48,081 nt of DNA from an uncultured Lachnospiraceae bacterium. Its GTDB lineage: Bacteria; Bacillota; Clostridia; Lachnospirales; Lachnospiraceae. Under the pieces are notes generated by a model, which did no database searches, was not told where the DNA came from, and saw only the letters and a list, made by a program, of their open reading frames with translations. The stretch lies in NCBI GenBank assembly GCA_948954545.1, contig CARCRR010000028.1, forward strand, positions 1 through 48,081, written 5' to 3'. Position 1 is the stretch's first letter. Every line of letters begins with the position of its first letter. The position numbers were made by a program, and so were the translations under genes. Below are positions 2,705-2,954 of the stretch, piece by piece.

Positions 2705-2954
2705 CAGCCAGAGTTTGGAACCTCTTTCTTGCAACTGTGACTTCGGAGGAAAGTTAGAAGCTCTTAGACTTCTGTCGATCCACTAGGATTTTTGCCATTC
2801 TCGAATGGCAAAAAAGGGGTGTGTTTAGCCCGCTGCACGGGCGAATTGCACCCCGTTCCGTCCGGTTGGATACACCCAGACTCAGAAGTCTTAGAGCTTC
2901 TTCTTTCCGAAGAGCGGAACAGCTGCAAGAAATAGGTTCCAAACTCTAGCGTCC
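2705..2954 (+). repeat. Family-1 foldback element, copy 1 (~250 bp): termini CAGCCAGAGT...ACTCTAGCGTCC, long imperfect inverted arms, and a central pair of hairpins.
   Basis: Five copies in the window (2705, 8625, 12857, 29310, 44725). The centre is TTTTTGCCATTCTCGAATGGCAAAAAA followed by GGGGTG..GCCCG-ctgca-CGGGC..CACCCC. Confidence 0.85.

Follow-up and report, generated by a model that had tools for sequence, protein, structure and literature searches.

Does the foldback sequence of about 250 bp that recurs along a 48,081-nt contig of an uncultured Lachnospiraceae bacterium (GenBank CARCRR010000028.1, analyzed at full length and hereafter called the window) belong to a structured RNA, or is it a mobile DNA hairpin? 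An earlier note made from the sequence alone had claimed five copies, here c1 to c5, and had posed the choice as one between a structured RNA family and a miniature inverted-repeat transposable element (MITE). That framing was right, although the evidence backs elements of both. Using an nhmmer profile built from the five copies, we found exactly these five places in the window and no additional copies, at coordinates that agree with the earlier ones to within 1 nt (Table 1); the remaining profile matches were weak antisense self-matches due to the palindromic arms. The copies are about 236-255 nt long and align end to end with a mean column identity of 83%, and the termini, arm sequences and hairpin alleles cited before were all found. 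The predicted fold is exceptionally stable on both strands of c1, with −130.9 kcal/mol on the plus strand (z = −11.4) and −135.1 kcal/mol on the minus strand (z = −12.7) against an average of about −71 kcal/mol for shuffled sequences, and RNAalifold placed 94 pairs on the five copies, with both-sided changes in 30 of them.

The family had been taken for an undescribed one, which it is not. Three of the copies, c1, c2 and c5, exceed the gathering score (43 bits) of the Rfam family RF01731, TwoAYGGAY, whose model spans only the inner helix P1 and the centre of the element (Table 1). A scan of the whole window listed c2 only, apparently owing to speed filters, and c1 and c5 matched when searched alone. 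The other two copies gave no Rfam match at E ≤ 0.01, even in 350-nt searches; both have a different compensated P1 allele, and c3 was probably missed because of its version, AAGTCTTATGCC. Given that c3 and c4 align over their full length with c1, c2 and c5 and share every conserved block with them, we regard them as paralogues overlooked by the Rfam pipeline. The motif was described by Weinberg et al. (2010, Genome Biol 11:R31) from human-gut metagenomes, Clostridia and gamma-proteobacteria, as a probable RNA that was judged not to be cis-regulatory and whose closing stem is “often very large (e.g. 24 base pairs).” The elements studied here likewise have a very long closing stem, made of an outer and a variable stem that together comprise 27 or 33 bp and are 96.7-97.3% paired in an alignment of 105 copies, as well as the internal loop, the P1 helix and the multi-hairpin apex, and they come from the same habitat and taxon, gut Clostridia. 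The blocks UGUGACUUYGGRAG..UUAG, UCUUAG/CUUAGA and ACRRCGGAAC are common to the window copies, to the sequence hgutS8 of the original alignment and to the human-gut elements with which we compared them (54 elements, dereplicated so as to be at most 95% identical). What differs is the pair of terminal loops that gave the family its name: the human-gut relatives have them (CCAUGGAUGG / CCACGGACGG), whereas in the lineage of the window both are replaced, by UCUCGA (or variants) and CUGCA. It is thus well supported that the five copies are members of the known orphan family TwoAYGGAY, in a lineage-specific version devoid of the name-giving loops.

The extent of the family became apparent when a 21-base pattern from the core was compared with representative genomes. 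Among the matches listed, nearly all came from a single metagenome-assembled genome (MAG), the mouse-gut Lachnospiraceae MGBC128194, and the window belongs to the same species, as two contigs of this MAG are 98-99% identical to it. MGBC128194 holds at least 186 non-overlapping matches in 748 kb, full length in 107 cases, and most of the partial matches lie at contig ends, indicating that the repeat breaks the assembly. The new aspect is therefore not the family itself, but a loop-less, hugely amplified variant of it; the published descriptions of TwoAYGGAY that we found mention neither more than 180 copies per genome, nor the orientation subfamilies, head-to-head composites and promoter boxes described below. 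In a second Lachnospiraceae MAG, CBFFYP01, copies at four loci appear as two half-matches 52-66 nt apart, and the family of that genome apparently carries an apex insertion or a larger centre.

Read from the outside in, each element is made of the outer stem, the variable stem, an internal loop, P1 and an apex of three small hairpins. In the lineage of the window the hairpin base consists of terminal inverted repeats (CAGCCAGAGT / ACTCTGGCG), the whole element running from CAGCCAGAGT to ACTCTGGCGTCC, and the conserved outer stem measures 9-10 bp (CAGCCAGAGU / ACUCUGGCG). The variable stem has a fixed length, which is 24 bp in copies that we call type A and 18 bp in those that we call type B, and it is hypervariable but strictly complementary. 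The internal loop (UGACUUCGGAGG / YCGGAGAGCGGAA) is conserved; it could adopt tandem G-A pairs, and a small helix together with a symmetric GGA/GGA loop is possible in it. P1 is a helix of 24 bp with an invariant U-U mismatch flanked by hypervariable, covarying dinucleotides. The earlier statement that the subterminal arms differ completely between copies and yet remain self-complementary proved right as to complementarity and too strong as to difference, since several positions of the 24-bp type are fixed or nearly so (AA at 15-16, T at 21, CTT at 24-26 and GCTG at 30-33). The variation of this stem falls into patches that recur about 10 nt apart, which looks as if one face of the helix were contacted and the other left free.

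The fold is conserved well beyond chance, as had been supposed. Across the 105 members, 98.3% of cells are paired and double changes occur at 44 of 71 pairs; cells with a double change number 1105, compared with 310 ± 18 in shuffles and at most 201 when the partners were slid against each other, and none of 500 shuffles attained the observed value on any measure. In the variable stem, several of the pairs occur in four or more pair types. The compensatory alleles of the centre hairpins are present too, in mixed combinations (GGGGUG/CACCCC versus GGCACG/CGUGCC; GCCCG/CGGGC versus GCCUC/GAGGC; and a further pair, UGCCAUUCUCGAAUGGCA versus GGGCACUUGUGCCC), but they amount to a few discrete alleles common to many copies rather than to many independent events. 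Pairwise identity averages 0.46 for the variable stem, compared with 0.84 for the core. Many positions are invariant in all 105 copies next to loop and stem positions with pairwise identities of 0.3-0.5, which speaks for selection on individual positions.

A duplex of fixed length, 18 or 24 bp, framed by conserved structure and unique in nearly every copy could be the source of guide-like RNAs, the variable duplex being processed, for example by RNase III, to short RNAs that recognize other sequences. We give this idea next to no credence: in about 0.8 Mb the variable arms had no excess of matches (seven 14-mers versus 1-5 in shuffles, and one 15-mer versus 0-3), an excess of 12- and 13-mers is probably due to low-complexity sequence, the stems of copies that stand in pairs are unrelated to each other, and the 10-nt spacing of the variable patches, suggestive of a single helix face, points to a spacer rather than an address.

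The kinds of imperfect pairs bear on whether the constraint acts on RNA or on DNA. In P1 and the loop region, G-U pairs outnumber A-C by 33:6 in type A and by 43:1 in type B when read on the Rfam strand, a one-strand bias of 76:7, and a tandem U-G/G-U is kept in 103-104 of the 105 copies. Also in favor of RNA are the internal loops and junctions, which stay invariant beside sites that vary freely, and the promoter-like boxes that adjoin the hairpin base in separate sublineages. In the outer and variable stems of type A, G-U and A-C are nearly balanced (44 versus 36), and the C-A mismatch that is common in the outer stem of this type turns into U-G when the opposite strand is read. Changes on one side only are much less frequent than double changes, and one-sided G-U intermediates are rare everywhere. 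These features speak for a constraint at the DNA level. We conclude that the core evolved, and is still constrained, as RNA, while the outer duplex is constrained or corrected as perfectly complementary DNA or RNA that can be read on either strand. The claim that covariation reflects selection for the fold thus holds for the outer stems only in part, since the balance seen in type A equally fits complementarity at the DNA level or templated correction.

These observations bear directly on the view that the element is a purely selfish, non-autonomous foldback transposon of MITE or REPIN kind, moved as a single-stranded DNA hairpin by an enzyme encoded elsewhere, so that the “covariation” would stem from the needs of the transposase and from template-switch correction between the arms of a quasi-palindrome, and not from an RNA function. 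We hold this view to be unlikely, though it accounts for a good part of the data: pairing that is strictly Watson-Crick, G-U and A-C being about equally frequent in the outer stems of type A; hairpin alleles in mix-and-match combinations that suggest exchange between copies; and high copy number, intergenic placement and contig breaks inside copies. It does not account for the one-strand G-U bias of P1, nor for the strong conservation of internal loops and apex, far from the termini. The occurrence of the motif in both Clostridia and gamma-proteobacteria (Weinberg et al. 2010) would also make it unusually old for a MITE.

The history of the copies is consistent with an element that has spread in this lineage but is not seen to move now. 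No pair of copies is more than 95% identical; the identity of a copy to its nearest neighbor is 0.89 at the median and reaches 0.95 at most, and this lack of near-identical copies counts against a purely selfish element. Within the species, c3 is identical in four other assemblies, in which only the unit number of the adjoining tandem array changes, and c4, judged by spacer length only, lies in an intergenic spacer of 478-498 bp in five other assemblies, a length constant to within 20 bp; for c5 no record was obtained for the adjacent HxlR protein. In three related species (QueH 75-85% identical) synteny is kept, but the M32-QueH spacer measures 120-145 bp, compared with 620 bp here, and a search of the syntenic loci (8.8-12.7 kb, E ≤ 1) detected no element. 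This makes c1, c2 and c3 gains of the present lineage, and such lineage-specific insertions are equally what selfish DNA would produce. The spacers of the sister species are too diverged to align for a reconstruction of the empty sites. The expansion is thus old relative to the divergence of strains and young relative to the divergence of species.

The two types are also two orientation classes. Where the genes on both sides share a strand, it is the strand opposite to the element for 14 type A copies (type A comprises c1, c3 and c4 in the window) and the strand of the element for 3; for type B (c2 and c5) the numbers are 3 and 11. A convergent stop codon lies near the 3′ end of type A, the median distance being about 50 nt, and the 3′ end of type B is found 65-300 nt upstream of a co-directional start. 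An extended −10 box, TGnnAnAAT, which was found by eye and then counted with a regular expression, stops 0-2 nt short of the hairpin base; 16 of 32 type B copies have it and none of 41 type A copies does, and one copy of the MAG has a perfect TGGTATAAT box. Conversely, a run of A before the base, that is, a run of U after the hairpin on the other strand, precedes 30 of 41 type A copies versus 8 of 32 type B copies, and four or more T within 20 nt past the 3′ end follow 2 of 41 versus 14 of 32. A scan for sigma-70 promoters reported none at the copies, as expected for boxes that have no −35 element. In the human-gut elements, an automatic search for −10 boxes gave an ambiguous assignment, both a conserved yTATAgGATTAGGGTGTC and a TGnGAATAT box being seen. 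In the window, c1 is situated between the stop codon of the upstream gene (position 3028) and a canonical terminator at 2677-2656 on the minus strand, and hence inside a 3′ untranslated region.

Orientation bias of this kind is known from elements that move as single strands and is to that extent compatible with selfish DNA, but the selfish view leaves unexplained why promoter-like boxes stand at the hairpin base in separate sublineages. GC skew failed to separate transcription from replication as the cause of the bias, as it just follows the gene strand. The flanks of the elements, in the loci of the MAG and in the window, have a strong strand asymmetry (mean absolute GC skew of about 0.18, coding strand G-rich), which explains an apparent “C-rich tail” after type A copies.

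With promoter boxes and U-rich tails, some copies resemble self-contained units of promoter, hairpin and U-tail, in the manner of the CsrB/RsmZ sponge RNAs, which are hairpin-rich small RNAs with their own promoter and a U-tail. The sole published proposal of a function that we found (Gardner and Eldai, PMC4333381) builds on a match of both AYGGAY loops with the CsrA site and sees in the motif a CsrA sponge, that is, a trans-acting small RNA that sequesters CsrA or a similar RNA-binding protein, and the loops of the human-gut relatives are consistent with it. For the lineage of the window, however, such a function is very doubtful. Both loops are replaced, and no GGA occurs in the terminal loops as it does in those of CsrB/RsmZ; conserved GGA is confined to the internal loop and to junctions, where UAGGAU and UUGGAU alone remain, the latter variable. 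Type A has no promoter, and more than 180 copies are far above what a sponge needs and orders of magnitude above the copy number of CsrB/RsmZ. The TwoAYGGAY literature that we found contains no test of CsrA binding.

Many copies stand in pairs. Among 46 close neighbors in the loci of the MAG, separated by gaps of 76-1122 bp, 41 stand head to head and none tail to tail, and 8 of 9 fully typed pairs join one type A with one type B copy; 36 evaluable copies are paired (about 60%) and 24 solitary. All five copies in the window are solitary. The shortest spacers, of 76-83 nt, form a conserved module, TATTGTCYCACAATTTACG...CCUCUAUGGAUGCAUGAAUCAAC...CGGCAGGAAAAGA. At its left end the type B promoter box appears in reverse complement, and this end can be read as a second −10-like hexamer (TATTGT) that points to the type A copy. 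In longer spacers, tandem repeats and a second repeat family add to the length. The pair spacers of the MAG hold tandem arrays with units of 20-38 nt, some of which repeat the promoter-like box. Fifteen human-gut pairs are likewise head to head, with 382-483 nt between the 5′-arm motifs, mostly 422-426 or 479-483. In the human-gut lineage the head-to-head pair forms a composite of about 970 bp that is 79-97% identical between contigs amid flanks that cannot be aligned, with sharp ends (AAATGMTGGTTTGT...ACAAACCATCATTT) and terminal inverted repeats of about 14 bp; no other observation indicates as clearly that the pair transposes or recombines as a unit, and the composite would also suit selfish DNA. 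In five human-gut contigs, one flank of the composite is common and the other unrelated, which suggests that the elements are rearrangement breakpoints or sites of gene-content change. Coevolution of the stems of paired copies was considered and rejected, paired stems being unrelated.

Head-to-head copies that enclose a spacer with promoter-like boxes could also be the inverted repeats of an inverton, whose promoter-bearing spacer would be flipped by a small tyrosine recombinase. Three paralogous recombinases of about 200 aa, reduced to the catalytic domain and with weak matches to tyrosine-type DNA invertases, are indeed encoded in the loci of the MAG (L014:818-1423(−), L051:4684-5274(+) and L097:1204-1782(+)), one of them 195 nt from the 5′ end of a TwoAYGGAY copy. 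Yet the recombinases are not consistently adjacent to copies, the window copies are solitary, the two arms match each other in nearly every typed copy without any crossover hybrid, and orthologous human-gut composites are collinear over the whole unit with no inverted spacer, as is c3. An inverton is accordingly most improbable. There is also no sign that the centre of a copy has been inverted relative to its flanks, as the A and B flanks are homologous and have the same orientation to the centre.

Neither a linked partner protein nor a source element was found. Neighboring genes are unrelated housekeeping genes in the window, in the MAG and in the human-gut contigs; the 150 open reading frames (ORFs) that neighbor the human-gut copies matched 191 Pfam families with at most three members each (top 25 of the 191 listed), and transposases, reverse transcriptases and recombinases are not enriched near copies among the Pfam matches listed. 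No autonomous parent with the same termini and a transposase occurs among ORFs of at least 150 aa in 0.80 Mb (the window and the loci of the MAG), nor among the 150 human-gut neighbors; the loci of the MAG hold no multi-copy transposase; and we saw no gene for a RAYT (Y1 transposase) flanked by repeats in these loci or in the window. A parental insertion sequence with matching inverted repeats, which the earlier note had named as the finding that would reduce the element to an ordinary MITE, turned up neither in the conspecific MAG (0.75 Mb) nor in the human-gut contigs (0.87 Mb), and searches of viral, plasmid and phage collections did not yield one either. A phage or plasmid origin was rejected, as these collections contain no copies. 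Target-site duplications are lacking as well, with no direct repeat at the boundaries of type B copies or at human-gut composites in different flanks. The selfish-DNA view is thus left with neither transposase, RAYT nor target-site duplication at any of the places inspected.

Dispersed copies with no linked gene might instead be retro-elements, the hairpin RNA being reverse-transcribed in trans and re-inserted like a bacterial short interspersed element (SINE), or serving as template for a defence reverse transcriptase. Indirect support comes from a preprint (bioRxiv 10.64898/2026.09.22.753630, 24 September 2026, [quoted passage not shown]), known here by its term counts, which uses “AYGGAY” 56 times, the abstract included, and 4 times as “AYGGAY element,” next to reverse transcriptase (14), cDNA (24) and DRT (18), with counts of zero for “transposon,” “transposable,” “CsrA,” “recombinase,” “nuclease,” “ribozyme” and “Lachnospiraceae.” In our data no reverse transcriptase adjoins a copy among the matches listed, for 32 ORFs of the window (in one scan, the first 25 of 38 families) and for the 150 human-gut neighbors (the top 25 of 191 families), and the inspected flanks have neither A-tails nor duplications of variable length. 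Moreover, the promoter box of type B is conserved upstream of the presumed RNA start, where an RNA intermediate would not carry it, and the pair spacer is conserved as DNA; an element that takes both with it when it is copied is unlikely to pass through RNA. We consider a retro-element very unlikely.

Correia elements are abundant intergenic inverted repeats that are co-transcribed with neighboring genes, form RNA hairpins and can supply promoters or terminators. The window copies have no sequence relationship to the Correia/NEMIS repeats of Neisseria, which are 100-155 bp long, with TA duplications and no conserved structured apex; here there is no duplication, and a centre of 110 nt is strongly conserved. 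REP, BIME and REPIN sequences are closer in some respects, being palindromic intergenic units present by the hundreds, often as inverted doublets that form hairpins after stop codons, and existing as sequence clouds with correlated changes in the arms that depend on an enzyme (RAYT) in trans. A REP unit is only 20-40 nt long, however, compared with about 236-255 nt here, without a complex apex or a promoter, and a RAYT gene flanked by REPs defines that system. ERIC/IRU, BOX, RUP and Bcr1 elements, which are MITE-like repeats of enterobacteria or Firmicutes, are also dispersed, transcribed, imperfect intergenic palindromes that affect mRNA ends, but they have no homology to the present family and are species-restricted, without a structure of covariance-model grade across bacterial classes.

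On the whole, we think it somewhat more probable than its negation that the copies are structured small-RNA gene cassettes that are copied as DNA in the manner of a mobile element and that double as transcript-boundary hairpins, a mechanism proposed from sequence context. According to this model, copying and dispersal into intergenic DNA would take place at the DNA level, as for a non-autonomous mobile element, and the basic unit would probably be the head-to-head pair around a short spacer with promoter-like boxes. In type B, the extended −10 box and the U-rich tail would yield a discrete hairpin RNA or a 5′ leader toward the downstream gene, and in type A, the hairpin complement and its U-run would form the 3′ end of the mRNA from the upstream gene and serve there as a terminator or as a stabilizer of that end. 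The core would be held by sequence-specific selection on the Rfam strand, whereas the outer stems would need only a perfect duplex of fixed length, kept by selection and possibly by templated correction between the arms.

Several points weigh against this model of DNA-copied RNA cassettes. The near-equality of G-U and A-C in the outer and variable stems of type A is what complementarity at the DNA level predicts. Type A has no recognizable promoter and a core as conserved as that of type B, which a purely cis-acting role as an mRNA-end hairpin fails to explain, and the promoter and terminator roles of the copies are predicted ones. Neither a transposase, nor target-site duplications, nor empty-site polymorphism within the species were found in the material covered, and with all copies at most 95% identical nothing shows recent movement. 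Two of the five copies, c3 and c4, fall below the Rfam reporting threshold and the name-giving loops are absent. Finally, the preprint cited above, as far as its term counts tell, may assign a role to TwoAYGGAY, perhaps a different one. A bolder form of the model, which we judge decidedly unlikely, sees protein-free mobile small-RNA cassettes: each would be a head-to-head pair around a compact two-way promoter. An enzyme of the host, or one encoded at an unlinked site, would copy it in trans, possibly by an unusual route such as complementary DNA, and most of the more than 180 copies would be selected individually because they define transcript starts and ends genome-wide.

Table 1. Coordinates in the window of the five TwoAYGGAY copies, their parts and adjoining signals.
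Feature	Position	Strand	Remarks
c1	2705..2955	+	Type A (24-bp variable stem); antisense to both flanking genes
c1 outer stem	2705-2714 / 2943-2951		
c1 variable stem	2715-2737 / 2920-2942		
c1 conserved internal loop	2738-2749 / 2907-2919		UGACUUCGGAGG / CCGAAGAGCGGAA
c1 P1	2750-2774 / 2883-2906		Central U-U mismatch
c1 three-hairpin centre	2775-2882		
c1 stretch matching Rfam RF01731	2741..2915	+	63.7 bits, full model 1-168
T-run TTTTTTCCT	2696..2704	−	Directly after the c1 hairpin complement, in host-gene direction
Canonical intrinsic terminator	2656..2677	−	28 nt past c1 in host-gene direction
c2	8624..8865	−	Type B (18-bp variable stem); co-directional with flanking genes
c2 5′ flank			TATATTGTGGAAAAAGA; intermediate of the A and B flank types
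c2 match to Rfam RF01731	8659-8834		68.2 bits, full model 1-168
c3	12858..13109	+	Type A; antisense to flanking genes
Tandem array	13112..13289	+	35-nt unit x 5.1; abuts the c3 3′ end, not part of the foldback
c4	29310..29563	+	Type A; antisense to flanking genes
c4 alternative compensated alleles			GGCACG/CGTGCC and GCCTC/GAGGC
c5	44725..44960	−	Type B; co-directional with downstream addB, start about 130 nt away
c5 match to Rfam RF01731	44755-44931		65.3 bits, full model 1-168
Extended −10-like box TGAGACAAT (TG, one base, GACAAT)	44962..44970	−	1 nt before the c5 hairpin base; putative promoter function
Terminator-like alternative hairpin	44714..44733	−	CUCUGG of the c5 outer-stem 3′ strand can also pair with downstream CCGGGG, then UUUUUUU

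Other repeats and genes of the window were recorded along the way. The 35-nt array beside c3 is G-rich on the gene strand, and its unit number differs by one or two among conspecific assemblies. Further tandem arrays lie at 36996-37115 (52 nt x 2.3) and 37347-37424 (35 nt x 2.2), the unit of the latter ending in CAGCGTCC, a sequence similar to the 3′ terminus of the TwoAYGGAY element. The second repeat family, about 120 nt long and unrelated to TwoAYGGAY, occurs at 27792-27911, 25557-25674, 46108-46274, 1-65, 32620-32693 and 23612-23718, with partial copies at 8918-8960 and 45072-45098; it has a hairpin of its own (CTCATCAAGGAAGTCCC...GGGGGACTCCCTTGATGAG) preceded by GTCAAATCGGATATTCGCAATC, and about 65 BLAST matches in the loci of the MAG, often in the spacers of paired TwoAYGGAY copies. 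The ORF at 177-2615 on the minus strand encodes 812 aa with an eukaryote-type Major Vault Protein shoulder (E = 1e-22) and a Vault_3 repeat (7e-7), and a sister species has a NAPRTase gene after the PilM-like gene where the window has this vault-domain ORF. Gene content also varies between strains at about 26742-28376 (compared with loci L129-L134), downstream of a gene for a 240-aa protein (28377-29099), which is followed directly by a GerA gene in some assemblies and by a DNA methylase gene (N6_N4_Mtase) in others, the window included.

TwoAYGGAY has been an orphan since 2010, and more than 100 diverged, position-fixed copies in one genome provide unusually rich comparative data for it. If the copies set transcript boundaries, the way operons are read would be affected across a common gut Lachnospiraceae; and if they are only selfish DNA, they would still be a leading reason why assemblies of these genomes break, and probably a source of rearrangements as well. 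Should the bolder cassette model be true, the family would represent a novel type of element that combines traits of a selfish repeat with those of a regulatory RNA gene.

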